In this document: in pieces, positions 34,757 to 57,706 of the stretch
Position numbering within the stretch: the first letter of the stretch is position 1
How the letters are laid out: each line of letters starts with the position of its first letter
From: a virus
Virus record (IMG/VR): IMGVR_UViG_3300042547_000432
DNA length: 64,000 nt
Strand: one strand, 5' to 3'
Notes under the pieces: model-generated
Databases searched by the model: none
Told to the model about the DNA's origin: nothing
The model's input: the letters and a program-made list of their open reading frames with translations, nothing else
Position numbers and translations under genes: made by a program

Positions 34757-37700
34757 CTAATTTGTAGTTCTTAAGTAATCACCAGCATCGTGTGTCTTTG
34801 CTGTTGTATTATTTTGTCCTCGTAAAACTCCAATAAAACGATCAACTAATTTTGAAGTATAAGTTACTATTTCGTCACCAACCAGTAACTTGCCAGATGA
34901 AGGAAAACCATTGGTATTAGCAACATAGATGATAGTGCTGCTTGTCGTTAGTGGCATTTGTAGATATGCTCCTAGTTCATTCGTTGAACCATACCCAAGA
35001 TTCATCAAGGTTTCTTCCGTAACTCCTTTGGATGACATTGAACGAACTTCGAAATCTTCTATGGTAATATCTCCATAAAGTCTATCGAATTGATCTAAAG
35101 AAATTCCGCCAAGTTGTAAGTAACCCATGTCATTGAACGCACCATTTTCAAATTTCTTTAATGTTGACCCCAAAGTTAATGGAGCAAATGATACGATAGA
35201 TATTCCTGGTTCAGCATAAGTATCGGAAAATCCTGTAGGAATAGATTTAACTATTTCTTGTTTTACAGAATTGACAGAAGTAGATTTGACATTTTCCCAA
35301 AGAGTGTGTACATTAACAACAATTTGATTTTTTAAGGATACTACTGAATTTGGTGATATTAATATATTAAATTGTGTTTCGGATCTTGAAGAATCATATT
35401 TAACATCTGCTACTGGTATGGTTTCAAAAAGTGGATGAATGCCAGTGGTTATTACTCTAGATGGTTCTAGAAGTTCTGTTGGACTAATAATAGATTCTGC
35501 TTCATGTACGGCAAATCCATATTCTAGATTTATGAGTGCCGAAACTAATAGTGTTGTCTTAATTTCTGGGAAGAAAGTTAATTCAACTTTTGTTGTTACT
35601 TTTTTCTCTGGATTTTTAATAATATCAAATCCTTTAGCAACATATACCCTTGGCGGTGTCAAATAACCGCTTCCACCATTAGTTAAAATAATATCAATAA
35701 TTTCTCCCTTACTTTCTACAGCAAAACCGCTCGCACCTCCCCCCTGAGCAGGCGAAATAATAGTTCCGCCTTCATCTCTTAATGGTTGAGGAACAAAAAT
35801 TAACTTAGGAGCATTTTCATACCCATAAGCTCCTGGTTGGATTCTAGATAATCCATATTGAGAATAATTTCTATCATTCCATTCTAACTGAGTAACAGAT
35901 CCATTTTGTATACTGGCAGTTACTGATAGTCCTTCCCCTCTTCCAACTTCCTCATTTGGAGTTACACTTAGTCTACCAAAGAAGTTGTTGGCTATTGAAG
36001 AATTTGAATTATATTGAGTTTTGAAAACTTTCTGTGGGAGAGATAAAATTTTTCTATATGATTTTTCCCCATCAACTCGGATTCTATCTCCAATGTCAAT
36101 AAAATTTGGAGAAGTTCTTGATATTGAGGATCCTATCAACCACCCACTATTTGTTTTTTGTAAAATACCTAGTGTTTCATCGTCTCGTTCGAAATCGGAA
36201 ACAGATATAATTGATGAAGAAGGAATTGTCAGATCACCCAAACCAGATGCTAAACCATTTATGATAGTAATATTTTTTGATGGATCAAAAGGAGCATTTT
36301 GAGATTCAATGTATAAAATAGAACCCGTATTAGTTACAGATACTCCTTTTGCTTTACCAATAGCAGTGTAATTAGTCGTTGACGTTCCTTGGTAACAAAT
36401 TCTATCAGCGTATTGTGCTAATGGAGGAACATAATTCAAGTCTATTTTAATTAAATTAAAATAAGTGTCTTCTTCATAATTGAAAGCGGTTATTGATGTA
36501 GAAACGGATCTTCCATAATAATATAATATAACTATTTTTTGCCCTGGTAATGGTGGGTTGGTGAATCTAATAGAAGAACCTTGGATAGAATAATCTTTTG
36601 TTTTCTTTTGTAATACTCTATCAACAAAAACTAATATATTGTTATCAATAAAAACTTCTAGAGGTTTTTTATTGATAACTCTTCGCATAATAAATGGACC
36701 GTATGTAATTCCATCAACAAGTGATGTATCAATTTCAGCTATTTCATAACTAGAAATTGAATATGCGCCAAAAACTTGACCAGACTTAGGTGGTTCTATA
36801 AAAACAATTTCATTTGGAGTTACTGTTCTTCTGATGTAATAGGATCTATCTATTGGGAAAGTTGGAGTAATTCCTGCAGTCTGTAAAACTCCATCAATTG
36901 TAACTAATAAATTGTTACCTGACTCTAGAACAATATTGTTATTTGAATCATCAATCAATTGGAAGGTGGTTTTTACTCCATCAAATTGATTTGATATATT
37001 TTTAATTTTCTTGAAAAATTGTGAATTGACGGTAGTATCTTTGTATCTTAAAATTTTACCAACAAATTTCTGTGATGGTGTATCAACTCCCTCTACATAT
37101 TGAGATGGTGTAATACTTTGCCCTTGATTATTTCTATATCCAAGTGGCGCTTCTTTGAAGGTAATTTGTGTATTTGATACAGTAAACGCTAGTCCTGGTT
37201 GCTGAAGAATACCATCTAACGAAATAACAAGATTCTCTTGTTGTGGAACAGCAACAGGATTGTTGCTTCCTAATATTTTCATAGTAAATATTTTATTTCC
37301 AGCTCTATTTCCATTCGAATCAAAATAACCATTAAATGGTGGATCTAAAACTATTTCAAAACTTGATGTCTCGGCGTCATCGAATGAATTTACAAATAAT
37401 GCTCCCTTTCCTCTTTGGACATCCATGAAAGAAGAATTTAATATAGACTGAGTAACAGTTCTATATGTGTTTTGAACAGTAACTTTATTTTTTTGTGGAT
37501 CCCACAATTGAATAGTCGAAACCGAATCCAAACTAGGTGGATTTGGCTTCATTCTTGCTATAGCATCAGATTCAATAAAAACTTCACCAAATAATTTAAA
37601 TCCAGCTGGGTGGGTTGACGCCTTTATAAGAGCTCGCCATATGTCAATAGGAGTTCTAGACCTAATAACATAAGAGTAGTCTTGATAAAAATTGGAATCT

Positions 37701-40700
37701 GTTAATTTTTGCGAAGACGTACTTAATTTCGATTTATCGGAAGCATAATATCCTAAATTGTCATAATATGACTTAATATCGTAATTAAATTCTCCAACGA
37801 ACGAAGATGTGACCTTGGCAGTTTTTAGTTGAGTTTTCCCTGTAATTTGAAAATTGTTTCTAAATTCTCCTTCAACTCTATTCAATTTAAGGATATTACT
37901 TCCTTCCTTCCATCCATCTTTTGATACATATCCTTTTGCTATCAATACACTTCCATCATATTGTTCTACTATTTCTCCTTCAAAAAATGCTTTTTCTGGA
38001 AAATCTTTTAATATTAAAATTCTATGTGAAGTTATCTTTCTCTTTGTGGTATAATCAGCATTAAATGCCTTTCCATTTTGAATAATAGAAACTTTTTTTG
38101 GAATACCAATATTTGTACTTTCAAAATATAATTTTACGTCAGTTTCGATAATTCTAACTTCTGGTTTGTAAGTAAATCCAGTTCCACCATTCACCAAAAT
38201 TACTGCTGCTATTGAATTATCCGTAGATTTTCTTATATCAAAAACAGCATTTCTTCCATCTCCATTCACCACAATTGCTTTTGGTTTAGAATAGTTTCTG
38301 CCAGGATTAATAATAGAGACGCCAATAATACTTTGTGTTTGTGGATTCCATTCGATATTCACGGTACATTCTGAAGACGCAGCTGGACGAACACCAGCAA
38401 CAACAGGAACGGAAGACATACTGTTGCCAGAATTAACTAATTTTATAGTGTTTATTTGACCAACAGCGTTTGTTGATGTAGTTGTGTATGAAATTATTCC
38501 ATACCCAGAATATTGTGGGTAATTAGATACTTCATACACCATCTCAGATGGCGTTGTATAGATAATTCTGTGTTCACCTTGTAAAGGATCATCAATCAAT
38601 CTCAAATATGCTTTTTCCGAATCAATGATGTTATTCTTATCATAAAAATAATAGTTGGTAAATTCGCTAATTTTTTTATCACTGAAATTATTTGAAGAAA
38701 TATTTGCGCCAAATCCTATCTTCAGAGAAATAAAAGAATTGGCAAATCCAGGTTTTTCTATACTTTTTTCTACTTCATTGGTTAATATGTTCAAATTGCC
38801 ACTTGGAGAAAATTCTAAGAAACTACCAGCTAAAGAAGGATGTGAAGTATCAAATTTATACTTATAGAATTTTTGAATAGGTATAACTGGATTTTTTCTC
38901 CAATTGACATTATCATATGAAAATTCAAATTTAAATTTTGGTGATTCTATAACATCTACAACTCCAACCAATTTTCTTGGAGTATTTTGATCATAAAAGA
39001 AACTAGATGAAGTTATAGGATTGATAGTAGTTATTGTGTTTCCAGACTCAAATGTTAGTACCAATTCACCAGTTTCGGGGTCATATGAGTCTACAAAAGG
39101 ATCGGCAACCGTTGTACCTAATTGATAATTAAATCCTAATTTATATTGAGGAGATTCCGAAGAAACAATTCTGTTGAAAATGTGGTCAGCAGCAATTGTA
39201 TTTTTTTGACCGCGCAATACAACCACAGAATTTTCGTTGGCATTAATACTAACTACTTCCATTATTTCACTATCTATTTTTAAGTAATCTCCATTTGATA
39301 TAGAAGTAATCTCATTTAAAAATAATTTAGTATTTGAAGACGCAAAACCAGCGTGATCTACCTCAACAAGCAAACTTCTGGCAGAAGATGATAGAGGATT
39401 TTGGTATCCAGAAGATGGTGAAATAGTTAATATGTCTCCTTTCTTGTAAAATTTTCCTTTGGATGTAATGATAATTGAGGTAATCAATCCATTAGTTACA
39501 GTTAAAGTAGCTCTGGCATTATTTTGATTGCCAGGATTGCCAATAACAGACTCTGAGATATTAGAAACTATTTGCCCAGTCTCACCTCTACATTTGGTTT
39601 GATCTACAAATATTAATTCTACATTGGTTAATGTGGAATTACCACTAGTGTCGTAAGCATAATCCGAACCACTATTTAATAATATTATTCTACCCACACC
39701 ACTATCTACAAGTGTTTTGTTGTAAAATGGAGTGCTTAATTTTACTTTTTGGTATATTCTTTTTCTGGTGTATACTGTTGTAGTAGTATTAAAATCGTCT
39801 GGAATGATATCAACTATAATGTTTTCATTCACTGATACACCATGATTTTCTGTGGTTTTTAAAACAGCAATCTTATCAGTTGATGTTAATACTTTTATGC
39901 CAGAACTTAATGGTATTTTTTGGACAATTCTACTGCCGACAGTATCTCTTAAATTATTAGTCCTCAGAAAATATGTGGCATCAACATCAAAATTTCCTCT
40001 TTGTACTCTAACCTTACAAATGTTTTTTTGATCCGTTGATTCTAATACTACTCCATACCCTCTTTGACTTAAAACAACAGATCCAGGGGAAGAGATATCA
40101 GGCAACAATAATGCAGGACCATTTGGTGTTGTTGCTACTTGAAAATTTGTGGGGGAAGAATTTACAACATAATAAATTTTGTTTGTCAATAAACCAGCAA
40201 AAGCACTTGAAAAAATAATTGGTTCTCCATTGACAAACGTATTTGATGCTAGATTTATTTTATTTGAAGATGTAGACAAAATAATTGCTTGTTTTCCATT
40301 TGTTAGGAAAATTTCGGAATCAGCTGTATATGATGAGATTTTATCAACTACTAAATTTACAACTTCTATGCTCGATGTAGCAAAATTAGTATTTGATGGT
40401 TCGAAATTTTTTGTTACTTCTTTTAGAATAATAGTTTTTCCATTGAATACATTTCCAATGATTTTTCCAGAAGCAAAAGTTCCCGATTGTGTCAATGTAT
40501 CGCCATCATACAAATAACAGGGGGATTCTGTAGTAATTTTTACGCACTTATCCAAAGATGGTGGTAAAAGTACCAAAATACTACCATCTCTTAATAAAAC
40601 ATCAGTTGTGTTTAAATTGTAATCTGGGATATCTTTAGCATCAATAGTAATAGAAAATCCCAAACCACCAACATTTACTGGATAGTTAGTAATTCCTGTC

Positions 40701-43700
40701 GAAGTTAACTGCGAAGTGATACTGGCGGAGAAATAATCAAAAAATGTGTATATACCAAAAGAAGATAAAAGAGAAGATACTGGTTTTCCTTTTACACTAG
40801 AAACTTCCGCTAAAATATCCTTACCACCAGAATTAGTGTAGTCAATATCTACAATACTTCCGATAGAAAAATTTGACGGGGAAGAAAAAACAGAAACATC
40901 GGAGACAGAACCTGTTGTGATATCTTCAACGAAAGCTACTACCCCATCTCCATTATTTTCAGTTCTACTTGTTCTTAATCGAGTAATGTTGTTGGGTAAA
41001 TCATCTTGTGAGATAGTTTTATTGTAATTAGAATCTACAGGAATAGAATAGTAATTTTTCCCCAAGAAATAAGGATATGCTGGTACATTATTAGACTCTA
41101 TAGTTAGAAAATAGGCATACACTCCATCTGGATAATCTGGAGTAACACAAAATCTTCCGTTATTTTCATCCAAATCTCCGAAACGATGAGAATATTCATA
41201 ATCTTCAATAAACGATCCCAAAGCATACGCATTTGTTGATGGTCCCCCTGGTCTGTTTATTTTTAATCTATAACTAGAACGCATTCTAGTAATGGGTGAC
41301 TGTGGATTTCCTGGTGTCTGATATCCATATGGACCATATATTGGATTACCATCATAAGCATAACCAATAATTGGAGAATGTGTTAATGTTGATGCGACAT
41401 TACCGACATTATCTAAATTGTCGTTTAAAGCAACCCTTAAATCTTTTGGATTTGCGACATGAGAATATCCATATCCAAACGCTAAATTGTTGTTGATAAA
41501 ATAATGCCCATAATTATTATCTAAGTTTGTCTTTAGTTTCTCAAATCTATTTTTTGTCCAAGTTCTAACAACAGAAATTGCCTGTGCTCCAGAACCAATA
41601 GATTGAATTTCGATAGTTGTTGTTCGTGGATCATAAAACTTTCCTTCATTATTTTTGACAAATCCCGTGAGCTGACCTTCATCAGAAATTACAGCAGTGA
41701 AATCAGCGAATCTTCCTTTTCCTGAAGAATCTTTAACTACAACTCGTGGAGCGGTTGTATAGTACTCACCAGCGTTTGTTATTTTTATACTTGTAATTCT
41801 ACCATTCGTGATGATTGGTTCTACAGTAGCATTTCTTCCTGAAGTTATAACTATTGTAGGAACGGGTGGGAAAAATCCACTTCCAGCACCAATAACATCA
41901 ATTCTATCAATTGTGTCTCCAGATAATACCGCTTGAACGTTTGCTACTCCGCTAACTCCAGCACTATCAATCACCAAAACCTTTGGTGGGTTTAAATATC
42001 CACTACCTTTGTTAGTTACTTGAATATTTGTGATCTCGCCAAAAGTTATTGTTTCTTCGTCTTTTACACCTCTTATGGGAACACCATTGATCAATACACC
42101 GACATCTTTATTACTGGTTTCGTAAATCTCTGTAGTTCTTGTGGGAGTTTTTCTGATTAATTTTAAGTGTTTTTGGTCAGCAAGAGTAATATTCCATGTA
42201 TTCTTACCAATATTGTAATTAGGATACCCAGAAGAAGCAATATAATAATACTGTTCGTCTTCATAAACAGCGGAAACATTTACTGGTACTTCCGCTAATG
42301 AAGTTATAGAAGAAAATGTGTTGTTTTCATTTAATAACCAACGAATACTATTTGTTTGCTTTCTGAAAATGATTGGATTTTTTGTTTCAAATCCAGATGG
42401 AGCAATCTGAATAGAATCTCCAACAGAAGAATATGGAGTTGGAGTTTTTTGGTCTAAATTATATAAAATACCTAAAATCAATAAACCCTTTGTTTGAGTA
42501 GCTCCTGTACTATCAATATAAGAAACAGAAACATTAGATTTCTCATATACAGGAGTATTTGCTGAATATGTTATTGGGTTTGAACCCCTTGATTCAATAA
42601 TAAATTGATTTACTGTTTTTGATCTAAATTTTACGATTTCTGTACCGACAACAAACTGCCCGCTTGTATTTTTCCACCCAGCAGTTGAATATACATTTAC
42701 TCTATTATTTGTAGAAGCGGTGGATAACAGTGGTGAGGTTAGGTATGTTTGCGAAATTACAGAAAATTGACCTATTACACTGGATTCTGCGAGGATAACC
42801 TCGTAAAATCCCTCACCAATAGAAATAATATTATCAATAACAGCAGAAGCATAAAGAATAGAAGAATTACTGGGATCTTCTACTTGATTAATCCTGGAAC
42901 CAATTAATTGACGAATATCTGATACACTTCCTAAGATTTTAACTTTTAGCGAATAATTATTAATCCATTCGCCGCTCGAAGCTTTGTATGTTGAGTCTTT
43001 TGGATACCAAACCGTAGGGTCATTTGGTAAATCTGATGGAACTAAAGAATTGAATAAAAACTTGATTGATGACTCTGTTCCCTTAGCAGCATAAAACTTT
43101 TTGATATTCTTGATCAATAAAGATTTGTCTGCTGTTGTTTTAAGATTTGCTTCTGGGAAAGATGACAAATATTCTTTTTCAAAATTTTTAACTAAAGAAT
43201 ATAGAAAAAGATTACTGATATTAAGGACAACATCTCCAGACAAAAATCCTACCGTTGTTGGTGTTCCTACACCAACTTGATTGTTTGGAACTGACTTAAA
43301 ATCAATCGAAGAATAAAGATCACCTAGTTTAGTTGCTGCGCTTACATTTCTGTAACAGTTTACGAATGAAGTAGCAGTTTTGGTTTTGTAAAAAATAACT
43401 TCGCTGCCAATCAGAACATATCCATTTGTACTTGGGAATGAAGAAGTATTTTCTACTAAAATCGTAGTATCTGTTGGTAATACGTTTTGCGTTAGAACAG
43501 TTTCTTGACGTAATAAATCGTGAGCATAAGTATCAATATCACGATACTTAACTACGTTATTAACTAAATCAAGAGGTTGTCCTGGCAACTCAAGTTGTTC
43601 ATAATATTTCTGTATGAACGCAGAAAATTTAGGGTACTCAGATGCTATAAAATCTGGTAACTGATGATCAACGAGAGCAGAAAGACTTTTTACTTTGGAT

Positions 43701-43705
43701 GCCAT
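34757..43705 (-). CDS. gp7: Baseplate wedge initiator gp7 (2982 aa)
   Basis: SLSALVDHQLPDFIASEYPKF; IKKFYAAKGTESSIKFLF; a YHYH-like HSPIIGYAYDGNPIYGPYGY block; DSNFYQDYSYVIRS..HPAGFKLFGE. Lies between gp6 and gp8. Confidence 0.88.
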   Translation of the reverse strand: MASKVKSLSALVDHQLPDFIASEYPKFSAFIQKYYEQLELPGQPLDLVNNVVKYRDIDTYAHDLLRQETVLTQNVLPTDTTILVENTSSFPSTNGYVLIGSEVIFYKTKTATSFVNCYRNVSAATKLGDLYSSIDFKSVPNNQVGVGTPTTVGFLSGDVVLNISNLFLYSLVKNFEKEYLSSFPEANLKTTADKSLLIKNIKKFYAAKGTESSIKFLFNSLVPSDLPNDPTVWYPKDSTYKASSGEWINNYSLKVKILGSVSDIRQLIGSRINQVEDPSNSSILYASAVIDNIISIGEGFYEVILAESSVIGQFSVISQTYLTSPLLSTASTNNRVNVYSTAGWKNTSGQFVVGTEIVKFRSKTVNQFIIESRGSNPITYSANTPVYEKSNVSVSYIDSTGATQTKGLLILGILYNLDQKTPTPYSSVGDSIQIAPSGFETKNPIIFRKQTNSIRWLLNENNTFSSITSLAEVPVNVSAVYEDEQYYYIASSGYPNYNIGKNTWNITLADQKHLKLIRKTPTRTTEIYETSNKDVGVLINGVPIRGVKDEETITFGEITNIQVTNKGSGYLNPPKVLVIDSAGVSGVANVQAVLSGDTIDRIDVIGAGSGFFPPVPTIVITSGRNATVEPIITNGRITSIKITNAGEYYTTAPRVVVKDSSGKGRFADFTAVISDEGQLTGFVKNNEGKFYDPRTTTIEIQSIGSGAQAISVVRTWTKNRFEKLKTNLDNNYGHYFINNNLAFGYGYSHVANPKDLRVALNDNLDNVGNVASTLTHSPIIGYAYDGNPIYGPYGYQTPGNPQSPITRMRSSYRLKINRPGGPSTNAYALGSFIEDYEYSHRFGDLDENNGRFCVTPDYPDGVYAYFLTIESNNVPAYPYFLGKNYYSIPVDSNYNKTISQDDLPNNITRLRTSRTENNGDGVVAFVEDITTGSVSDVSVFSSPSNFSIGSIVDIDYTNSGGKDILAEVSSVKGKPVSSLLSSFGIYTFFDYFSASITSQLTSTGITNYPVNVGGLGFSITIDAKDIPDYNLNTTDVLLRDGSILVLLPPSLDKCVKITTESPCYLYDGDTLTQSGTFASGKIIGNVFNGKTIILKEVTKNFEPSNTNFATSSIEVVNLVVDKISSYTADSEIFLTNGKQAIILSTSSNKINLASNTFVNGEPIIFSSAFAGLLTNKIYYVVNSSPTNFQVATTPNGPALLLPDISSPGSVVLSQRGYGVVLESTDQKNICKVRVQRGNFDVDATYFLRTNNLRDTVGSRIVQKIPLSSGIKVLTSTDKIAVLKTTENHGVSVNENIIVDIIPDDFNTTTTVYTRKRIYQKVKLSTPFYNKTLVDSGVGRIILLNSGSDYAYDTSGNSTLTNVELIFVDQTKCRGETGQIVSNISESVIGNPGNQNNARATLTVTNGLITSIIITSKGKFYKKGDILTISPSSGYQNPLSSSARSLLVEVDHAGFASSNTKLFLNEITSISNGDYLKIDSEIMEVVSINANENSVVVLRGQKNTIAADHIFNRIVSSESPQYKLGFNYQLGTTVADPFVDSYDPETGELVLTFESGNTITTINPITSSSFFYDQNTPRKLVGVVDVIESPKFKFEFSYDNVNWRKNPVIPIQKFYKYKFDTSHPSLAGSFLEFSPSGNLNILTNEVEKSIEKPGFANSFISLKIGFGANISSNNFSDKKISEFTNYYFYDKNNIIDSEKAYLRLIDDPLQGEHRIIYTTPSEMVYEVSNYPQYSGYGIISYTTTSTNAVGQINTIKLVNSGNSMSSVPVVAGVRPAASSECTVNIEWNPQTQSIIGVSIINPGRNYSKPKAIVVNGDGRNAVFDIRKSTDNSIAAVILVNGGTGFTYKPEVRIIETDVKLYFESTNIGIPKKVSIIQNGKAFNADYTTKRKITSHRILILKDFPEKAFFEGEIVEQYDGSVLIAKGYVSKDGWKEGSNILKLNRVEGEFRNNFQITGKTQLKTAKVTSSFVGEFNYDIKSYYDNLGYYASDKSKLSTSSQKLTDSNFYQDYSYVIRSRTPIDIWRALIKASTHPAGFKLFGEVFIESDAIARMKPNPPSLDSVSTIQLWDPQKNKVTVQNTYRTVTQSILNSSFMDVQRGKGALFVNSFDDAETSSFEIVLDPPFNGYFDSNGNRAGNKIFTMKILGSNNPVAVPQQENLVISLDGILQQPGLAFTVSNTQITFKEAPLGYRNNQGQSITPSQYVEGVDTPSQKFVGKILRYKDTTVNSQFFKKIKNISNQFDGVKTTFQLIDDSNNNIVLESGNNLLVTIDGVLQTAGITPTFPIDRSYYIRRTVTPNEIVFIEPPKSGQVFGAYSISSYEIAEIDTSLVDGITYGPFIMRRVINKKPLEVFIDNNILVFVDRVLQKKTKDYSIQGSSIRFTNPPLPGQKIVILYYYGRSVSTSITAFNYEEDTYFNLIKIDLNYVPPLAQYADRICYQGTSTTNYTAIGKAKGVSVTNTGSILYIESQNAPFDPSKNITIINGLASGLGDLTIPSSSIISVSDFERDDETLGILQKTNSGWLIGSSISRTSPNFIDIGDRIRVDGEKSYRKILSLPQKVFKTQYNSNSSIANNFFGRLSVTPNEEVGRGEGLSVTASIQNGSVTQLEWNDRNYSQYGLSRIQPGAYGYENAPKLIFVPQPLRDEGGTIISPAQGGGASGFAVESKGEIIDIILTNGGSGYLTPPRVYVAKGFDIIKNPEKKVTTKVELTFFPEIKTTLLVSALINLEYGFAVHEAESIISPTELLEPSRVITTGIHPLFETIPVADVKYDSSRSETQFNILISPNSVVSLKNQIVVNVHTLWENVKSTSVNSVKQEIVKSIPTGFSDTYAEPGISIVSFAPLTLGSTLKKFENGAFNDMGYLQLGGISLDQFDRLYGDITIEDFEVRSMSSKGVTEETLMNLGYGSTNELGAYLQMPLTTSSTIIYVANTNGFPSSGKLLVGDEIVTYTSKLVDRFIGVLRGQNNTTAKTHDAGDYLRTTN

Positions 43706-47826: not shown

Positions 47827-48016
47827 TTTCTTCGCTTTCGTCAAAAAATTCGTCAACTTTTTCCAATGAAACTGAACCGTCTTTGTTCACTCTCCATTCT
47901 ATTACATTACCTTCTTCCCAACCAACGGATTGAACAAGTTCGTCAGGTAACGTAAGAAAATATTCATCAAAATCTTCGTTGTATTCTACAGTTGTTTCGT
48001 ATACTTTTGGTGTCAT
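47819..48016 (-). CDS. AbrB/MazE-like swapped-hairpin DNA-binding protein
   Basis: FLTLPDELVQSVGWEEGNVIEWRVNKDGSVSLEKV matches the LP.E....LGW.EGD.L...V.DG.I.L pattern. Confidence 0.6.
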   Translation of the reverse strand: MTPKVYETTVEYNEDFDEYFLTLPDELVQSVGWEEGNVIEWRVNKDGSVSLEKVDEFFDESEEND

Positions 48017-48210
48017 AATTGTAACATAACTGACTTTATATAGTTAGTAAAAATATAAAATATGTTGCCTAAGCATACGTTGCTGTAAATATTCCAAAGC
48101 ATTGTAAAAAGCAACCGAGTGAAATTTCAAATGTCTCTGAGATCCTCGGTTGCCAAATACAACGATTGTAAATTCTCGTTCGCTTACTAATACGTGAGTA
48201 ACTTGCTCCA

Positions 48211-48624
48211 TCAGCAGTCGGAAGATTCTACATCAAAGAACAAAAACAAATTGATGCGTTTCTGACGACAGCGATTCGGTTGAGTATTAATTACAGTTGG
48301 AGGGACAACTACAGGACCACCAGATCCTTGAAAGAAACTCGGCGGGTGGTATTGAATCTGAGATTGAGGTGCGTACTGAGCAACGTTAACGTAGTTTTGG
48401 CGTAGTTTGCCATACCTACGAATAAGATCTGCTTCTACCTGTTTCATATTCTGAGTGATGCCAGGTCCAGGGCTGATGCGAATCTTACCGCCGTCTGGGG
48501 TGTTATATACAGCACCTTGGGGTTTATCAGACCATTCGGTAGCATACTGTTGGGCAATAGCATGAGAGCTCAAAGGAAATGCGATGGTCGAAGCCATGGC
48601 ACTCGCAATTACGAAGTGTTTCAT
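48211..48624 (-). CDS. Signal-peptide-bearing hypothetical protein
   Basis: MKHFVIASAMASTIAFPLSSHA signal-like N-terminus. Confidence 0.55.
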   Translation of the reverse strand: MKHFVIASAMASTIAFPLSSHAIAQQYATEWSDKPQGAVYNTPDGGKIRISPGPGITQNMKQVEADLIRRYGKLRQNYVNVAQYAPQSQIQYHPPSFFQGSGGPVVVPPTVINTQPNRCRQKRINLFLFFDVESSDC

Positions 48625-48916
48625 AGTCTTATTGATTTCTTGCTTTTATCCTAACAGGTTTTCTGGGACTTGTCAAGCTTTCTGTGAGCATCTTCAAAAG
48701 TTCTTTGAGGACTATGAAGATATACGAAAACTCTTCGCTTGGCGTGGTTCGAGTACTTAGAGGTTTTTGAGTCATTTTTTTGTGGGAAAAATTTTTTTTA
48801 TGAAAGCGAAAACAGTCGAGCGTTTTCAAAGTTTTGTAGGTTAATAGTATCTATCAATTTTGGTATCGCTCGGCCGCGCCGTTATAACGATAACGTTATA
48901 AAATAACTGTCCGAGT

Positions 48917-48935
48917 GCCCCCCTGCTCGGGGGGC
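48917..48935 (-). terminator. GC hairpin closing the GC-rich island transcript
   Basis: GCCCCCC-TGCTC-GGGGGGC 7-bp stem, 16 nt after the HicA-like stop codon; the U-tract is weak. Confidence 0.5.
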
Positions 48936-48951
48936 GTGGTAGGATGGCGGG

Positions 48952-49161
48952 TCAGGTGGCAGCGGCGAGCGCCTTGCGAACGACTGCCGACATGCCAGGT
49001 GAGATGGTGCTGCGTCCCTTGCTGCCATGGGTCGGGACGATCAGATCAGACTGCCAGGCGGGATGCCTCCAGACTTGATGCGACGCTGTGGTTCGCTTGA
49101 GCACAGCGCCAACCTGTCTCAGCTGGCGCTCGGCGTCTCGGCACTTGAGAGGGGATGCCAT
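48952..49161 (-). CDS. hicA: HicA/YcfA-like mRNA interferase toxin
   Basis: 69 aa with R.L.Q.GAVL.R..ASHQVWRHP....LIVP.H.....ISPG...V.K, the HicA pattern including the catalytic (G/A)SH. Confidence 0.7.
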   Translation of the reverse strand: MASPLKCRDAERQLRQVGAVLKRTTASHQVWRHPAWQSDLIVPTHGSKGRSTISPGMSAVVRKALAAAT

Positions 49162-49164
49162 GGG

Positions 49165-49359
49165 TCAGTCCTCGTGGGTGAACAGGGGCAGGCGGGCGAG
49201 CGCCTCATCACGGTAGCGGTCGGCGTGGGCACCTGCCAACCACGATGCCTCTACGGTGATGGGGACCAGGCGCCCCATGGTCTGCTGTGCGTCATCAGTC
49301 GGGCGACCTGCCCACACGATCTGGCGGGTCTGGAGGTCGGATGCCATGGAGAGGATCAT
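49165..49359 (-). CDS. Hypothetical early protein
   Basis: ORF directly behind a TAGACT promoter (49386-49391). Confidence 0.5.
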   Translation of the reverse strand: MILSMASDLQTRQIVWAGRPTDDAQQTMGRLVPITVEASWLAGAHADRYRDEALARLPLFTHED

Positions 49360-49404
49360 CGGTGTCTGTCGGTTGAACTGAGAGAAGTCTACAGGCGGCG
49401 CCGC

Positions 49405-49590
49405 TCAGTGGCGGTCGCTGATGTTCCAGATGCCCCACTGTCCACCGTTGGCGTGGGCGTCCCGAACTTCGATCGCTTCCATACGCTGGGCGCTGGTGTA
49501 GGTCGCCCAACCCTCAGCGGTCTCGCTGGCGAGGGTGCTGCCGTAGCAGGCGTTCCAGATCAGGTTGGCGGTTTCGAGGGTCATGGTCAT
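49405..49590 (-). CDS. Hypothetical early protein
   Basis: ORF behind repeat promoter copy 1; starts MTMTL. Confidence 0.55.
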   Translation of the reverse strand: MTMTLETANLIWNACYGSTLASETAEGWATYTSAQRMEAIEVRDAHANGGQWGIWNISDRH

Positions 49591-49669
49591 GGGTCGTTTC
49601 GTTTCGATGCTGTTAGTCTACAGGGTCGGGCGGCAGGATCGGGGGCATCAGTGGACACCCCCTCAACCG

Positions 49670-49939
49670 TCACAGCTCTGCCATCATGGCGTTCATCTCG
49701 TCGGCATCAATGGCGACGCTATCCCATGCCACCCCGTCACGGGTCTGCCCGAGGTGGCGACCGATCATGCCATCCATCATGCAGCGAACGAACTTCTCCC
49801 AGGGGGTCTCATCATCGCCACAGTACTCTACACATGCCTTGGCGGTGTTGTAGAGGAATTCATCGTTGCCGATCCACAGGGCGGCATTCCAGGTCTCGTA
49901 GGTTGCCCAACCGTTGTAGGTGCTGAGGGTCATGGTCAT
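49670..49939 (-). CDS. Conserved phage hypothetical protein (YNGWATYETWNAALWIGNDE family)
   Basis: The YNGW.NYETW...LW..NDE motif is common in phage early regions. Confidence 0.65.
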   Translation of the reverse strand: MTMTLSTYNGWATYETWNAALWIGNDEFLYNTAKACVEYCGDDETPWEKFVRCMMDGMIGRHLGQTRDGVAWDSVAIDADEMNAMMAEL

Positions 49940-49983
49940 GGTCTCGTTTCGTTTGGTTGATGCTGTTAGTCTACAGGGTCGGG

Positions 49984-50124
49984 TCAGCGGATCTCTGCCA
50001 GGATGGACACCTTCTCAGCTGTCACACGGTCAAGGGTCTGGGCGAGGGCGAACACGCTGCCGAGGGTCTGAGCGAACATCAGGCAGATGCCAGCGATCAG
50101 GGAGAGGCGGATCAGGTTTGCCAT
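49984..50124 (-). CDS. Small hydrophobic protein (46 aa, not in the ORF track)
   Basis: MANLIRLSLIAGICLMFAQTLGSVFALAQTLDRVTAEKVSILAEIR, behind repeat copy 3. Confidence 0.45.
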   Translation of the reverse strand: MANLIRLSLIAGICLMFAQTLGSVFALAQTLDRVTAEKVSILAEIR

Positions 50125-50171
50125 GGTTGTCTGTGGTTGATGCTGTTAGTCTACAGGGTCAGCGCCGCCGA

Positions 50172-50372
50172 TCAGGCGAGGCAGTGACGGTTCACCCACT
50201 GTCCCAGGGAGAGGGGGCGGATCACCAAGGCGCTCACCATGGCACGACGGGAGACACCTTCGAAGCGGTAAACCTTCCTGCTGCTGGTGAACTGTACCCG
50301 AGCGGTGCCCGTGATAGGATTGACGGTCAGGCGATGGATGGCGCTGCTGTTCTGGCGGATTCGGAAGATCAT
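50172..50372 (-). CDS. KTSC-like small protein
   Basis: SSAI..L.......A.VQF......Y.FEGV......SLGQWVN resembles the KTSC pattern. Confidence 0.5.
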   Translation of the reverse strand: MIFRIRQNSSAIHRLTVNPITGTARVQFTSSRKVYRFEGVSRRAMVSALVIRPLSLGQWVNRHCLA

Positions 50373-50555
50373 CGTTTGTCTGTGGTTGATGCTGTTAGTC
50401 TACAGGGTCAGGGGGCGGCGTCTCGCTGCCTTGTGCCAGTTGATCAGGCGTCCCAGCCGTGAGTTTAATCAGGGCGACAATCGCCGCCACTCCTGCGGGT
50501 CCAAACCACATGCAGAGGATGATACCCAGCAGGAGATAACGCTTGCGAATGTTAA

Positions 50556-50987
50556 TCAATAGTCGCTGAAGATGTGGCAGGAACGATAGGACGTGCCATC
50601 ATCACAAGAGGTGAAATCGTAGCGCAGGTTGCGATCGTAAGTTGCCTCCCAATCAATCACCAAACCATCGGGAACATTCATGGTTTCGTTATAGTAATCC
50701 TCAGCGAAGTCTGCCTCAGAATCGTAACACCCACGGTAGCGATCATCGCAACCTTCGATGTTATCAATTCCATCCTCACTGGCGAGTGCATCTACTGCCT
50801 CGTATCCGATCGCTTCACCACAGCGAACATACTCCTCGTAGATGTTAACGAAGGCACGCTCATTGTACTCATCAATGAACTCCAGAATGTCATCCAGAGC
50901 GTAGTTATCTTCGAGCAATTCTTCGATCTTCTCGACAGTTTCAGTGCTGAGAACTTCTTTGTAGTTAGCGGTCAAAGTGATGGACAT
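50556..50987 (-). CDS. ArdA-like antirestriction / DNA-mimic protein (C-terminal part)
   Basis: Very acidic. YRGCYDSEADFAEDYYNETMNVPDGLVIDWEATYDRNLRYDF matches the ArdA Y.G.Y.S..DFA.E....P..L..IDWE..RDL motif. Likely start MSITL at 50987. Confidence 0.65.
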   Translation of the reverse strand: MSITLTANYKEVLSTETVEKIEELLEDNYALDDILEFIDEYNERAFVNIYEEYVRCGEAIGYEAVDALASEDGIDNIEGCDDRYRGCYDSEADFAEDYYNETMNVPDGLVIDWEATYDRNLRYDFTSCDDGTSYRSCHIFSDY

Positions 50988-51158
50988 TTGTGAAGTGAAA
51001 TGGTTTGGGGTGGGGCACCGATCTCCCCTACGGTGGTGAAGGATCTTACCCATGACCTGTCCCGATGTCGGGTGGTTTCGCTGGGAGGGTTCGCTTCTGA
51101 AGGTAGTATGGAGCAGATCGGGGGGAAAGTCAAGCGGTCTGTGCCACTTGTTGAACTG

Positions 51159-51320
51159 TCACATCCCGTTCAGGAAATCGGCAAGCGCCTCCCTATACTC
51201 TGCCTCAGTCTCAAAGGTGCGACCGTGGATAGTACGGGGGTACTCTGCCTTAGGAGCAGGTGCCTTGCTGGGCTCCTTGCCCTGGGCGATGATCTGAGCG
51301 ATGTAGGGGTTGTTTGTCAT
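51159..51320 (-). CDS. Small cyanophage early protein (53 aa, not in the ORF track)
   Basis: MTNNPYIAQIIAQGKEPSKAPAPKAEYPRTIHGRTFETEAEYREALADFLNGM, behind repeat copy 5. Confidence 0.55.
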   Translation of the reverse strand: MTNNPYIAQIIAQGKEPSKAPAPKAEYPRTIHGRTFETEAEYREALADFLNGM

Positions 51321-51373
51321 GCTGTTAGTCTACAGGGTCAGGTGGGGGATCCGATCCCCCTTGTGCCAGTGTG

Positions 51374-51565
51374 TCAGGCGTCCATCCCCATCGCTGCCTT
51401 CAGGTCGTTGTATGCCTTCAGGTAGTAGTCTGCATCGCTGCCCTTACCTGCCACGCGGCAGTCACAGGCAAGGCACAGGAGAGCGGTACGGATCGTGCTC
51501 CACTGTGCCTCGGTGAGGGTCACCGTGGCGAGGTCAAGGGGAAGGACGTTGGTTCGGACGGTCAT
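51374..51565 (-). CDS. Hypothetical early protein (63 aa)
   Basis: Start MTVRTNV at 51565, behind the promoter at 51591. Confidence 0.5.
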   Translation of the reverse strand: MTVRTNVLPLDLATVTLTEAQWSTIRTALLCLACDCRVAGKGSDADYYLKAYNDLKAAMGMDA

Positions 51566-51645
51566 CGGGTCGTTTGATTGAACTGGAATCAGTATAGAGG
51601 TTGACGGGGTGGGGTGGGAGTGGTAGTGTACCACTCCCTGAACTG

Positions 51646-51780
51646 TCACTCCTCGGGTCCGAAGCAGCACTCAAGGCAGAACGCCTCCAGCTCTGCATCA
51701 TCATCCATGGGCCAGGGTTGATCGAAGATCTCACCCTCGCAGTCCTGAATCTCATCCCAAAGGCAGGTGTCGAAGTCCAT
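51646..51780 (-). CDS. Very acidic Cys-containing peptide (44 aa)
   Basis: MDFDTCLWDEIQDCEGEIFDQPWPMDDDAELEAFCLECCFGPEE, behind the promoter at 51806. Confidence 0.45.
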   Translation of the reverse strand: MDFDTCLWDEIQDCEGEIFDQPWPMDDDAELEAFCLECCFGPEE

Positions 51781-51954
51781 CGGGTCGTTTGCTGTTGACT
51801 CCCTTAGTATAGGGTCAGCAGCGCCCCCTACAACCCCCCCGTGTGCCACCTCTCAAACTGGCCGCGGCGACCTAGACAGATGCCCTCTAGGCGACTAACC
51901 TAGAGGGCGGGAGGGGAGGGAAGCAAGGGGGCAGCGAAGCGGCCGCTCAGTTTG

Positions 51955-52149
51955 TTATACTAATACGTGGCGATAATCAATGGATTTAATACACCAACCC
52001 ATCGCACATGTAACCTCTTCAACTAGATCATCTTCATCATCTGCCTCCCAGATGTGTCCTACTGTGTCACCGATAATGTCATCACGCTCTGCATCTGTGA
52101 GGTCTTCATCATCAAAATCAAACTCAATTTCAGTGATTTGGTACAACAT
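51955..52149 (-). CDS. Very acidic hypothetical protein
   Basis: EIEFDFDDE...WEADDEDDLVEEVTCAMGWCIKSIDY, a cyanophage-type small ORF. Confidence 0.55.
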   Translation of the reverse strand: MLYQITEIEFDFDDEDLTDAERDDIIGDTVGHIWEADDEDDLVEEVTCAMGWCIKSIDYRHVLV

Positions 52150-52899: not shown

Positions 52900-53044
52900 A
52901 AATTTATAACTTTAAAGTTATAAATTTTAAGTTTTGTTAGAATTTAAAAACTTAAAGATTCTGAGGTTTCTGAGAATTTTAAGTTTTCAAGGTTTCTGAG
53001 AATTCAAGATTTCGTAAAATTCTCAGAAACCTCAGAATCTTTAA
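52900..53044. repeat. 28-bp perfect palindrome plus a 30-bp perfect inverted repeat
   Basis: AAATTTATAACTTTAAAGTTATAAATTT at 52900-52927; arms at 52952-52981 and 53015-53044. Confidence 0.9.
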
Positions 53045-53379: not shown

Positions 53380-53434
53380 AGTATGGCAGGGGTGGGGGTG
53401 AAAGTCAACCCCCCTAACCATCACCTTTGCTTAT
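53380..53434 (-). promoter_or_regulatory. Sigma70-type early promoter with a degenerate ATAAGC-N3-GCTTAT box
   Basis: TTGACT(53403-08)-17-CATACT(53380-85); box at 53420-53434. Confidence 0.7.
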
Positions 53435-53460: not shown

Positions 53461-53524
53461 TTTTCCACAGGGCTGTGGAAAACTTTCAATAGTTTTCCAC
53501 AGGTTTTGTTATATCTGTGGAAAA
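53461..53524. promoter_or_regulatory. Four DnaA-box-like 9-mers TTTTCCACA in two inverted pairs
   Basis: 53461-69(+), 53474-82(-), 53493-501(+), 53516-24(-). Confidence 0.7.
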
Positions 53525-53531
53525 CTTTTAC

Positions 53532-53696
53532 TTACCATTGTATATCATCACCGTCAAACTTAAGTTTCTTCTGCTTCTTGGGAGTTCGTCCCTTGTTTTG
53601 TACTTTCACGCCATACTGGATTTCTAAATCTTGCTCATCAAATTCATCGAAGTCGTTATAGAATTCTTTGAAGTTGTTTCCCTTTGCTTTAGCCAT
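53532..53696 (-). CDS. Small charged protein (54 aa, not in the ORF track)
   Basis: MAKAKGNNFKEFYNDFDEFDEQDLEIQYGVKVQNKGRTPKKQKKLKFDGDDIQW. Confidence 0.55.
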   Translation of the reverse strand: MAKAKGNNFKEFYNDFDEFDEQDLEIQYGVKVQNKGRTPKKQKKLKFDGDDIQW

Positions 53697-53802
53697 TAGA
53701 TTGAAATGTGTCCTGAGAGGTGTCTAGAATCGTCTGTAAGGGATATTGACAACCAAATTGGTGTCTTTACCCCTTGACAAACTTATTTAGTGTGTGGTAG
53801 GG

Positions 53803-54045
53803 TCAGTCAACCAGCAGTTTCAGAGTGCCTTGATTGACACTCTGACTCACAAATCGTCCCACCGAAACATCTTCGGTGTCGAATTCTGCCAACAGTTGCT
53901 GATCAAAACCCTCAGCATCTTCGGTACTGTAAGTATACTGTTTGTTACCATTGTTATATTCAATGGCTACAGTGTTCTTCTCAGTATCAATAACAATGTT
54001 TTTAATGGCAGAACTAGGAAGATCCTGGTAGTTTTTAACAGTCAT
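53803..54045 (-). CDS. KTSC-like small protein (second homologue)
   Basis: SSAIKNI.ID....V.IEYN.G.K.YTY......SVGRFV. Confidence 0.5.
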   Translation of the reverse strand: MTVKNYQDLPSSAIKNIVIDTEKNTVAIEYNNGNKQYTYSTEDAEGFDQQLLAEFDTEDVSVGRFVSQSVNQGTLKLLVD

Positions 54046-54072
54046 TGAATCCCTTTGATTGATTACTTAGTA

Positions 54073-54126
54073 ATAATACCAGTCTTTTCCAGTCTTGTCA
54101 ACCCTTTTTTGATAAGTTCTGCTTAT
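54073..54126 (-). promoter_or_regulatory. Sigma70-type early promoter with ATAAG-N5-CTTAT box
   Basis: TTGACA(54096-101)-17-TATTAT(54073-78); box at 54112-54126. Confidence 0.7.
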
Positions 54127-54155
54127 TATAACCATAAGTTATAATTATAAGACTT

Positions 54156-54305
54156 CAAAAATCTCAAAAATCTCAAAAAACTCAAATTTTAAGTTTTCTA
54201 AAAACTCGAAAAACTCGAAAACCCTTGGAAATACAGGATTCTCAGATTTTGCCGTTTTGAGATTTTTGAGATTTTTGGGGATTTTGAGATTTTTGAGTTT
54301 TCTGA
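54156..54305. repeat. Facing arrays of 9-bp repeats (AAAAA(T/C)CTC versus GAGATTTTT)
   Basis: About five units on each arm; perfect 23-bp inverted repeat at 54156-54178/54255-54277. Confidence 0.9.
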
Positions 54306-54493
54306 CAAAGGCTTGACAATCGTTAGGTCGCGTGCTAAGACTACAACAAACTCAGACATTTCGTAGCATATACGAGGTCTCTGAGGCACCTTGACAACTT
54401 AATACACCTTATTGCTAATGATTCTCAATAGCACTATAAAGAACCAATACCTATTTTTTTAACCATTTAAATTATGTAACAATTTCAAACACT

Positions 54494-54514
54494 TTTTCCA
54501 CAACCTGTGGAAAA
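54494..54514. promoter_or_regulatory. Third inverted pair of DnaA-box-like 9-mers
   Basis: TTTTCCACA at 54494-502, ACC, then TGTGGAAAA at 54506-514. Confidence 0.7.
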
Positions 54515-54519
54515 CTCTA

Positions 54520-54771
54520 TTACTTATCTCTATATGGATTCCAATTATCATTACCTACACTCTTATGATATGGTATAAAGAGTACGTTTTGTTTACTATC
54601 TGAATGTCTAGCAGCAAACCAATCAAAGAACTCTTCTTCTACTGCTTGAGCATTAAGACGATAGTATGTTTTATTCTTTGGTGTTTTACGTTTCTTGGCT
54701 GTAGAAAGCAGGGAATCAATACGATCCCCCGCCCAGTCAATTAATTCATTGTATTGTTGTTCATGCGACAT
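54520..54771 (-). CDS. Hypothetical protein
   Basis: ORF track; part of a coupled operon. Confidence 0.5.
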   Translation of the reverse strand: MSHEQQYNELIDWAGDRIDSLLSTAKKRKTPKNKTYYRLNAQAVEEEFFDWFAARHSDSKQNVLFIPYHKSVGNDNWNPYRDK

Positions 54772-56302: not shown

Positions 56303-56357
56303 AATATAGGGCATCAGTCAGCAAAAGTCAAGCGCCCAGCCGATGAGCGTTGCTTAT
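56303..56357 (-). promoter_or_regulatory. Sigma70-type early promoter whose box is embedded in the methylase 3' end
   Basis: TTGACT(56326-31)-17-TATATT(56303-08); box ATGAGCGTTGCTTAT at 56343-57. Confidence 0.7.
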
Positions 56358-57204
56358 CAATCACAGATTGTATTCTCGTTGTGCTTATGTCTGTGTAGTG
56401 TTGTGACAAATCAATTCCTACAAAATTTCTATTTTCTTCAATCGCCGCAACGCCTGTGCTGCCTGAACCACAGAAGGGGTCCAGCACCGTAGAATTGACA
56501 GGAGAATAGATTCTGATAAGATATGCCATCAAATCAATCGGTTTGACTGTAGGATGGTCGTTGAAATCTCCTTTCTCTTTACGAGTAGCACGGGGAGCAT
56601 AGAAATACTTCTGATGCTCTGAATCTACTTCACCAATAATATTGGAAGGATAACGCCCAGCAGGATTCGCATCCACTGTCCCACACTCAGCACCAGAACC
56701 TTTGGTGTTACCATCACGACCAAATGTACGGCGACTGGCACCACCTTTCACCCAACCAGTAGGAGGTTTCTTATCCCACGGCACACGAGTATTCTCAACA
56801 TCAATCAGACCACATCCCCACTGCTCAAAGTTATCCTTGAGTGTGCCTTTGTAAGGCTTCTGTGCCACTACAATCGGTTCGTGTGCGGGTTTGAGACGAT
56901 TGTGTTTAGGCATCTTGGTGGTGGTCATCCACATAATCTGATCCTTGATTTCAAACCCAGCATCCTCCACATTCACCGCCAGACGATGATACAATTCAGG
57001 AGAACAGAAAGCTAAACAAAAAGCACCAGGGCGAAGTGTACGAAACACCTCGCGCCAGATGTCTACACTGGGCACAGAATGATCCCAGTGATCCATACCC
57101 ATACCATAGGGAGGATCAGTGATACAAGAATGAAAAGTGTTCTCCCCATATGTGGAGAGAACATCTTGACAATTACCAGTTGTGATTGAGAACGTTGAAT
57201 TCAC
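56314..57204 (-). CDS. DNA adenine-N6/cytosine-N4 methyltransferase, beta class
   Basis: Motif IV (ITDPPYGMG) precedes motif I (VLDPFCGSGSTG); HPTVKPIDLM is also present. Probable GTG start at 57204 (alternative ATG at 57222). Confidence 0.9.
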   Translation of the reverse strand: MNSTFSITTGNCQDVLSTYGENTFHSCITDPPYGMGMDHWDHSVPSVDIWREVFRTLRPGAFCLAFCSPELYHRLAVNVEDAGFEIKDQIMWMTTTKMPKHNRLKPAHEPIVVAQKPYKGTLKDNFEQWGCGLIDVENTRVPWDKKPPTGWVKGGASRRTFGRDGNTKGSGAECGTVDANPAGRYPSNIIGEVDSEHQKYFYAPRATRKEKGDFNDHPTVKPIDLMAYLIRIYSPVNSTVLDPFCGSGSTGVAAIEENRNFVGIDLSQHYTDISTTRIQSVIDKQRSSAGRLTFAD

Positions 57205-57706
57205 AGGTTTGTCTGTCGGCATGAGTGAAATAATCGGTTTTGTCTTTACCACCAGACTGAGTATACATGTTGCGAATGTAGAAGTCAAATCCACGATTAT
57301 CGTTCTGCCATTCCTCATCCAGTTGATAAGTTTTGAGAACAGCGTTGAGATCTTCCACCAGTTGAGCGTAGAGTTCACGCTTACGGTGAGAAACTACATC
57401 ATCAGCAAAGAAAATTGTTGTATCGTTGTATTTCTTGGTGCTGAAGATATAGACTACACCTTCTTTAGGAAGTCCACCGTTGTATGTAGGAAATGTTTGT
57501 TTCGAAGACTTACATTCAATGTCAACAGTTTTACCGCTGGGAAGTGTCACGCGAAAGTCAGGCGATGCCTGTGAACCATTCGGTTGATACACATATGTAT
57601 AACCATATTTGTCAAGCAAATCTTTTACTTGCTGTTCGTGAAGCGGATTGTCTTGCGAATTGGATTTGTAAGGAAGTGTAAGAACTTCTTGCCAGAATTG
57701 TTTCAT
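57173..57706 (-). CDS. PD-(D/E)xK endonuclease, putative type II restriction enzyme
   Basis: QPNGSQASPDFRV...DIECKSSK catalytic signature; overlaps the start of the methylase. Confidence 0.7.
   Translation of the reverse strand: MKQFWQEVLTLPYKSNSQDNPLHEQQVKDLLDKYGYTYVYQPNGSQASPDFRVTLPSGKTVDIECKSSKQTFPTYNGGLPKEGVVYIFSTKKYNDTTIFFADDVVSHRKRELYAQLVEDLNAVLKTYQLDEEWQNDNRGFDFYIRNMYTQSGGKDKTDYFTHADRQTCEFNVLNHNW

Follow-up and report, generated by a model that had tools for sequence, protein, structure and literature searches.

Replication without the help of host DnaA has its textbook example in the T4-type phages. In T4 itself, oriF and oriG consist of a promoter and an A+T-rich DNA unwinding element (DUE), and oriE combines an early-mode promoter with iterons (PMC3016281). 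On the bacterial side, the nonamer TTTTCCACA is the cyanobacterial DnaA box, to which binding of DnaA has been demonstrated in vitro (PMC4674748), and boxes I and II of the DnaA-reactivating sequences (DARS) carry a head-to-head DnaA dimer that releases ADP (PMC6868365). Here we analyze a cluster of six perfect copies of this DnaA box in a 64,000-nt stretch of viral DNA (hereafter, the window), part of the 103,227-bp IMG/VR record IMGVR_UViG_3300042547_000432. The contig belongs to a T4-like cyanomyovirus, with best DNA matches to S-PM2, S-RIM44 and Syn1, in agreement with the initial annotation of the window, which had also proposed that the cluster is either a host-DnaA origin or a DnaA sink of the datA/DARS type.

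The exact nonamer occurs six times in the window, at 53461(+), 53474(-), 53493(+), 53516(-), 54494(+) and 54506(-). No further copy is found across the whole 103,227-bp record, the six sites being confined to a single 1.05-kb stretch. Dinucleotide-preserving shuffles lead one to expect 1.37 sites per 64 kb, and the Poisson estimate for at least six sites in 1.05 kb is ~2e-13, or ~1e-11 once window positions are allowed for. The cluster is real and highly non-random. It is organized as three convergent pairs, each with TTTTCCACA on the left and TGTGGAAAA on the right of a short spacer. Pair 1 (53461-53482) has a 4-nt spacer and pair 2 (53493-53524) a 14-nt spacer, and both extend to 12-nt arms (AGTTTTCCACAG/CTGTGGAAAACT). 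Pair 3 (54494-54514), with a 3-nt spacer, has the nonamer and one extended arm in common with pairs 1 and 2, its other flanks being different. The local genes form a run of small minus-strand open reading frames (ORFs) with sigma-70-like promoters, and every palindrome lies in an intergenic gap: pair 2 begins 8 nt past the stop codon of ORF 53532-53696(-), and pair 3 begins 5 nt past that of ORF 54520-54771(-). The two ORFs that abut palindromes in the window are lineage-specific and unrelated to one another. This description recovers what the initial annotation had reported of the locus, namely all six coordinates and their arrangement as three inverted pairs in 1.05 kb, the 12-nt arms of pairs 1 and 2, the intergenic position of all three pairs relative to the minus-strand ORF series, and the presence of AT-rich tracts and repeat or hairpin arrays near the boxes; a count of the exact nonamer across the contig, in line with the check that it had suggested, leaves no copy outside the cluster.

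A scan of IMG/VR for the convergent pair TTTTCCACA-N(1-20)-TGTGGAAAA found it in at least 117 contigs, and the statistics given below for relatives are taken from these listed matches. G+C content is below 45% in 93 of the 117 listed loci, most of which share proteins with this contig, and spacing and flanks were analyzed in 90 non-redundant low-GC loci among them. In S-RIM8, S-CREM1, Syn33, Syn9, S-PM2 and two long uncultivated viral genome (UViG) contigs, TTTTCCACA is rare and the majority of its copies are gathered at a single site of at most 1 kb. These genomes span 170-196 kb, and the site is always inside the small-early-gene region (~19.2 kb in S-PM2, 52.6 kb in Syn9 and 41.7 kb in S-RIM8). 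The comparison with related cyanomyophages that the initial annotation had recommended finds the cluster kept at one locus, in the early-gene region, in all five named phages and in more than 90 uncultured relatives, and the six boxes are a copy of a conserved single-locus DnaA-box module of marine T4-like cyanomyoviruses (Kyanoviridae). The only fully syntenic relative among the listed matches, L016, is ~81-90% identical in the region. All 54 of the 54 box nucleotides are unchanged in this alignment, and the changes fall in the spacers between arms and in adjacent non-coding DNA; pair 1 differs by a single change, in its spacer.

These comparisons bear on the alternative that the cluster arose by chance or by neutral duplication and has no function. 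Since pairs 1 and 2 share their 12-nt arms, a recent local duplication could account for part of the count. The Poisson estimate of ~1e-11 speaks against such an origin, as does the retention of the cluster across genera while spacers diverged, and the comparative data effectively refute this explanation, whose probability we regard as negligible. The module was not found in the cyanopodoviruses P-SSP7, Syn5 and P60, in the siphoviruses P-SS2 and S-CBS2, or in Ma-LMM01. We found no paper describing it in the searchable literature on the motif in phages, on cyanophage origins and on Syn9 antisense transcripts, many subscription papers lying outside that search. Two further occurrences of the nonamer in other viruses were seen. 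S-TIM5 (NC_019516), an unrelated, non-T4-like Synechococcus myovirus, has two perfect boxes at the beginning of its record, at positions 509 and 717, a distance of 208 bp. Seven IMG/VR loci with 55-60% G+C (L048, L050, L059, L076, L086, L098 and L099) carry an 18-nt-gap palindrome of the same nonamer with GC-rich conserved flanks; this group is a different viral contig family and not cyanomyoviruses.

The arrangement of the boxes in relatives indicates what kind of site they form. The gaps within convergent pairs peak at 4-5 nt (31 pairs) and at 14-15 nt (58 of the ~123 pairs listed), one helical turn apart, and the spacer of pair 2 belongs to the commoner class. Same-orientation neighbours, an orientation that the search did not select, lie 11-12, 21-22 or 42-44 bp apart. 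Some boxes have a divergent neighbour and others stand alone, and certain loci have up to eight perfect boxes in ~320 bp. The initial statement that the nonamer occurs always as inverted pairs therefore holds for the window but not for its relatives, which also have same-orientation arrays and single boxes. In its flanks, the phage consensus has A-G ahead of the box and a purine behind it. In the 150 bp around perfect boxes there is an excess of one-mismatch variants, whose changed base is at positions 1-3 (as in TTATCCACA), 5 or 6; none of them alters position 4, 8 or 9. This pattern resembles the published degeneracy of the box, TT[A/T]TNCACA, and does not resemble compensatory changes in a stem, which argues for protein sites at the level of DNA. 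Together with the helical phasing and the host-like spacing and flanks described below, which point to a DNA-binding protein and not to an RNA hairpin, we consider it very probable that the module is conserved and that selection maintains its boxes as sites for a binding protein.

The hairpin alternative has to be weighed against the same data. In this model the palindromes act as RNA or DNA hairpins that belong to promoter-early stem-loop (PeSL) cassettes, where they terminate transcription or serve for processing, with the cassettes also mediating shuffling in the hyperplastic early region. Such cassettes were reportedly described by Arbiol et al. in 2010 for the hyperplastic regions of T4-type phages. 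Hairpins at all six boxes are indeed stable, with z-scores of -4.5 to -8 relative to shuffles. The layout is also that of a PeSL, in which small, non-essential early genes are separated by a stem-loop and, behind it, a strong early promoter: each pair here directly follows the 3' end of a small early gene, a sigma-70-like promoter comes after pairs 1 and 2, and promoter-upstream sequence is repeated at 52500 and 53403 (repeat D3). In contrast to PeSL cassettes, however, the stems here have no terminator tails, there is one locus per genome both here and in the reference genomes, with no reuse of the cassette, and relatives have unpaired copies of the repeat unit as well, in direct arrays and as single boxes that are unable to form a stem. 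Loops of 14-15 nt are favoured over short ones, with gap peaks 10 bp apart, the variant boxes beside perfect ones are uncompensated, and elsewhere in the genome the early intergenic regions lack the motif. We thus regard a hairpin function as highly improbable. An intrinsic terminator was considered separately and rejected: a U-run is missing from the sense (minus) strand, and it is only on the antisense strand that the terminator scan calls a site. The palindromes read T-run, stem, loop, stem, A-run, so that an A-run follows the stem in both directions. A scan of 52.4-55.3 kb with Rfam returned no family, and gave only sub-threshold miRNA-like matches caused by long inverted repeats.

If the boxes are protein sites, the leading candidate for the protein is suggested by the host. 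In three marine Synechococcus genomes of 2.2-2.6 Mb the perfect nonamer is present in only 8-16 copies each, no more than a reversed control pattern, and the regions upstream of dnaN in marine Synechococcus have 2-5 boxes with at most one mismatch inside ~170 bp. The box density of the phage cluster is higher than that of any host locus. Among 151 genomes of the host family (picocyanobacteria), same-orientation perfect pairs occur in 24, giving 29 matches where the control pattern gives 0; their start-to-start distance is 11-12 bp in 10 matches and 21-22 bp in 13, and a purine lies behind the box in 25 of the 29. The two densest host arrays are at oriC, 220-345 bp upstream of dnaN. The phage arrays copy these host spacing and flank rules. 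No DnaA domain III (AAA+) or domain IV is encoded in this contig or in four other cyanomyovirus genomes. This, with the host-like rules and the cyanobacteria-specific T at position 3, makes host DnaA the leading candidate, and on balance host DnaA probably binds the boxes, whatever its role there. Identification of the nonamer as a DnaA box, with which the initial annotation began, is accordingly well supported by the published consensus, by the clusters upstream of dnaN and by the common spacing classes and flank preferences. By the same features the locus has the sequence marks of a DnaA-box cluster: it matches the consensus, and the phage arrays have the spacings of host origins, though the window itself contains only convergent pairs.

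The host scan yielded two observations of another kind. Several perfect same-orientation pairs in picocyanobacterial genomes lie far from dnaN (G081:C1:1027944, G136:C2:1046170, G074:C1:747148 and G074 753770), and may be secondary DnaA loci, either regulatory or datA/DARS-like. In addition, a contig of one host metagenome-assembled genome (MAG; G128:C163:8705-8735) carries box-TTATCCACA-box, the same arrangement as in the phage locus L028, and this contig may be of phage origin, assigned to a cyanobacterial MAG during binning.

One of the three pairs is linked to a second conserved element. A non-coding segment at 54277-54361 is kept in otherwise divergent loci and contains a backward-facing promoter-like element (54313-54341, plus strand), which opposes the direction of the genes and is aimed at pair 3. 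The element comprises TTGACA, a 17-nt spacer (aTCGTTAGGTCGCGTGC), TAAGAC and TACAA. A single copy of its core, GCGTGCTAAGAC, is present in each of Syn9, S-RIM8 and this contig, and the element is nearly invariant between the window and L016. In 19 of 20 cases it is aimed at a convergent pair, at a distance of 46-152 nt that is mostly 56-57 nt and is 152 nt here. Between the backward promoter region and pair 3 lies an AT-rich block (54420-54493; 78-80% A+T), a candidate unwinding element whose own sequence is poorly conserved relative to L016, whereas the promoter-like element and the boxes that flank it are conserved. Pair 3, at the distal end, closes a conserved unit of single-copy backward promoter-like element, AT-rich block and convergent pair. 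In the opposite direction, a forward early-type promoter (54073-54101, minus strand; TTGACA-17-TATTAT, an 11/12 match) stands back-to-back with the backward promoter and serves the phrog_4357 ORF at 53803-54045; in 12 loci boxes lie 50-420 nt upstream of homologues of the phrog_4357 gene. As a separate observation, the spacer and -10 region of the backward element, GTTAGGnnGCGTGCTAAGAC-TACAA (54319-54349; Syn9 ~52673(-); S-RIM8 ~41792(-)), is almost invariant and conserved far beyond the needs of a sigma-70 promoter.

The position of the boxes beside back-to-back promoters can also be read in another way, with the boxes as operators for a phage-encoded or other host DNA-binding protein that controls early transcription, their identity with DnaA boxes being convergent or coincidental. 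The convergent-pair architecture is phage-specific and nearly absent from hosts, the module is restricted to one phage lineage, the arms here reach 12 nt, beyond the nonamer, with A-G and purine flank preferences, and many small early proteins nearby have no assigned function; all of this speaks for an operator. The operator reading is harder to reconcile with the exact match to the cyanobacteria-specific variant of the box and with the presence of the same spacing classes and flank preferences at host oriC. The free orientation of the boxes, which occur in direct, convergent and divergent arrangement at phased distances, suits monomeric units like DnaA better than a fixed dimer. Nor is there a constant partner gene family, the ORFs that abut palindromes being lineage-specific and mutually unrelated. 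We therefore consider operators for such a protein rather unlikely, if still to be taken seriously. A cognate regulator encoded next to the module was looked for and rejected: the best family, Kyano_Gp96, is found at 39 of 96 loci, and on either side.

Returning to host DnaA, we suggest how it might act at the module. After infection, host DnaA would probably occupy the boxes, and on convergent pairs with a 3-5-nt spacer, or with one helical turn more, two DnaA molecules might sit head-to-head as on boxes I and II of E. coli DARS. The bound protein would act in cis, at the place where a short backward transcript is predicted to meet the forward early transcripts. Its effect there could be to block or stall RNA polymerase, or to promote opening of the AT-rich block. 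The outcome would be control either of an RNA primer or R-loop for the first round of replication, of the type of T4 oriF, oriG and oriE, or of read-through into early genes. Sequestration of DnaA from the host origin would be a side effect that grows as the phage genome is copied. Of the roles considered, action of host DnaA in cis is the likeliest: it would control early read-through, or else a short backward RNA or an R-loop by which phage replication is started or timed. We make this proposal tentatively, as one that may well prove wrong. Its most specific form, in which head-to-head DnaA on DARS-like boxes gates a backward-promoter R-loop origin while it drains or re-charges the host DnaA pool, is doubtful.

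Several results weigh against a cis-acting DnaA role of this kind. There is no GC-skew switch at the cluster, which the initial annotation had proposed as a sign of an origin; Syn9, S-RIM8 and this contig all have a monotonic skew, as almost all of their genes are on the same strand, and the absence of a switch is therefore neutral as to an origin. The bacterial basal unwinding system consists of tandem boxes with a spacer of at most 16 nt, at least three DnaA-trios (3'-GAT-5') and then AT-rich DNA (PMC8287927). In the window, trio-like runs are restricted to positions 0-2 nt from boxes 4 and 6, where they overlap stop codons (3 per 270 nt versus a background of 1.9/kb); DnaA-trio-like runs near the boxes are not above background, and no convincing trio run is present. 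The -10 sequence of the backward element, TAAGAC, is non-canonical, and the consensus promoter scan does not call the backward site because the final -10 base is C. Together with its strong conservation, this suggests that the element may serve another factor, as a second-factor or alternative-sigma site. Pairs 1 and 2 have no backward promoter here and are located upstream of the Kyano_Gp96 promoter. A closely spaced convergent perfect pair occurs in only one of the 151 host genomes, as a long unrelated palindrome, so that the hallmark of the phage module was not copied from host architecture.

The distribution of the module counts on the same side. It was not found in P-SSM2, in the freshwater phage S-CRM01 or in HTVC008M, a Kyanoviridae phage of SAR11, nor in T4, RB49, KVP40, Aeh1 or Acj133. 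Its absence from these phages marks it as optional and limited to one lineage, and as not essential for T4-type replication. In T4-like phages of other hosts and in HTVC008M no convergent pair is found even with the relaxed pattern TTWTNCACA, and a test of covariation with the host therefore cannot discriminate between readings. The original choice between a host-DnaA origin and a datA/DARS-like sink has fared unevenly: the identity of the boxes and their DARS-like polarity stand in its favour, the lack of the module in several related phages stands against it, and the skew gives no signal.

An optional element is also what one would expect of an accessory device for host takeover, and this leads to the possibility that host DnaA binds and the module acts in trans, as a datA-like sink or as a DARS-like head-to-head device that alters the nucleotide state of DnaA. 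Initiation on the host chromosome would then be shut down or deregulated while the phage replicates with its own T4-type machinery. The structural basis for this idea is the DARS1 core of E. coli MG1655, which reads TTATCCACT, 5 bp, TGTGGATAA, 3 bp, TGTGTATTA. Like its boxes I and II, the phage boxes face each other across a spacer of a few base pairs (5 bp in DARS1; 4 and 3 nt in pairs 1 and 3 here), and the convergent architecture of the module is phage-specific and of DARS-like polarity. The comparison with DARS made in the initial annotation is strengthened by this equal polarity and 5-bp spacer. S-PM2 has a complete trio, at 19231(+), 19244(-) and 19256(-), in which the third box has the orientation of box II and the offsets are 13 and 12 bp, and a third box at 11-12 bp accompanies 10 of the 30 short-gap pairs of relatives among the listed matches. 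In the window, no third box with at most two mismatches is present at the DARS offset; the locus thus has the box I/II arrangement and falls short of a full DARS core, which weakens the trans model here.

Box number can be counted for and against a sink. Six perfect boxes in 1 kb compare with 8-16 in a whole host genome of 2.2-2.6 Mb, where oriC boxes are mostly imperfect, but one or a few pairs per genome would make a small sink before the phage DNA amplifies. A sink would have no need of the tight, oriented link to a single-copy promoter-like element and an AT-rich block. Moreover, datA and DARS2 depend on sites for IHF or Fis, a datA-type sink combining its box cluster with an IHF site that promotes titration or hydrolysis of DnaA-ATP, and control of the DnaA nucleotide state as in E. 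coli would be carried over to cyanobacteria by analogy. We consider action in trans unlikely, and slightly more so than a binder other than DnaA; among the roles of host DnaA it ranks after action in cis.

The remaining features of the region are as follows. A second, weaker promoter-like site on the plus strand (54391-54419; TTGACA-17-GCTAAT) lies between the backward element and the AT-rich block and is not conserved in L016. A forward promoter-like site on the minus strand (53380-53408; TTGACT-17-CATACT), ~55-120 nt downstream of pairs 1 and 2, is suited to the ORF of the Kyano_Gp96 family gene (PF23790; 53041-53355, minus strand), the module's commonest neighbour, whose side and distance vary from locus to locus. 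Between the back-to-back promoters, 54155-54305 is occupied by two inverted arrays of 9-bp units (TCAAAAATC / GAGATTTTT) with arms of ~65 nt, and a perfect 30-bp inverted repeat of TTCTGAG units lies directly 3' of the Kyano_Gp96 gene (52952-53044). Both kinds of repeat are found only in this window and in its close relative L016, and they may function as iterons, form bent DNA or give rise to long hairpin RNAs. Farther away, 1.8 kb from the box cluster, a gene at 56314-57378(-) encodes an N6/N4 DNA methyltransferase (PF01555, E = 1.6e-36). An island at 48000-52000 has 52-56% G+C, compared with 32-40% around it; its ORFs at 49027-49926 and 49920-50462 have no Pfam match, and the ORF at 50556-51053 has a weak, sub-threshold match to the anti-restriction protein ArdA. 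In DNA of low G+C content there are four very large ORFs, of 2,100-2,980 aa, at 514-8385, 18166-24474, 24682-32832 and 34757-43705; all are on the minus strand and presumably encode structural or fibre proteins.

Set beside cyanobacterial oriC, the module has the same nonamer, TTTTCCACA, the same spacings of 11-12 and 21-22 bp for boxes in one orientation, and the same flank preferences, with G rather than A ahead of the box and a purine behind. In contrast to oriC, it resides in a lytic phage and adjoins neither dnaN nor dnaA, its neighbours being small phage early genes; its core is a close convergent pair, and its boxes are all perfect where those of host origins are mostly imperfect. Mobile replicons such as P1 oriR, pSC101, F and RK2 likewise place host DnaA boxes beside repeats and AT-rich DNA. 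These replicons also encode an iteron-binding Rep initiator, however, and they are not T4-type lytic phages.

The likeness to the T4 origins is one of layout. Like oriF and oriG, which are primed from an R-loop, the module has a promoter-like element followed within ~50-150 nt by an A+T-rich block, at a predicted point of local transcriptional divergence; it belongs to a T4-type phage with gp59, gp41 and gp32, and repeated short units lie beside the element. In the window this layout consists of the conserved TTGACA-17-TAAGAC and the 78-80% A+T block, with a non-canonical -10 and a distance to the boxes of 152 nt as against 56-57 nt in most relatives. The T4 origins differ in having no DnaA boxes, in keeping with replication of T4 without DnaA, and the phage element is without a skew switch. 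To our knowledge, cyanophages have no MotA middle promoters. The origins of the ecologically dominant marine cyanomyoviruses have been unmapped so far; for Syn9, what is cited in PMC2984593 is only an origin prediction from GC skew. If the more specific proposal of an R-loop origin gated by head-to-head DnaA is correct, the start of replication in the ocean's most abundant myoviruses would be under the control of host DnaA. In any case the module offers a concrete, testable site in the cultured phages S-PM2, Syn9 and S-RIM8, at which one can ask how these phages couple the first round of replication or early transcription to host physiology, and whether they disable initiation on the host chromosome.

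Compared with DARS, finally, the phage relatives are dominated by the 14-15 bp spacing class, and the element is phage-borne, with a promoter and an AT-rich block linked to it. DARS activity is defined only in E. coli-type systems, and the phage likeness to it is one of sequence. With these differences in mind, the head-to-head boxes that distinguish the phage module from its hosts may provide a natural system for the study of DARS-like DnaA-DnaA contacts outside E. coli.

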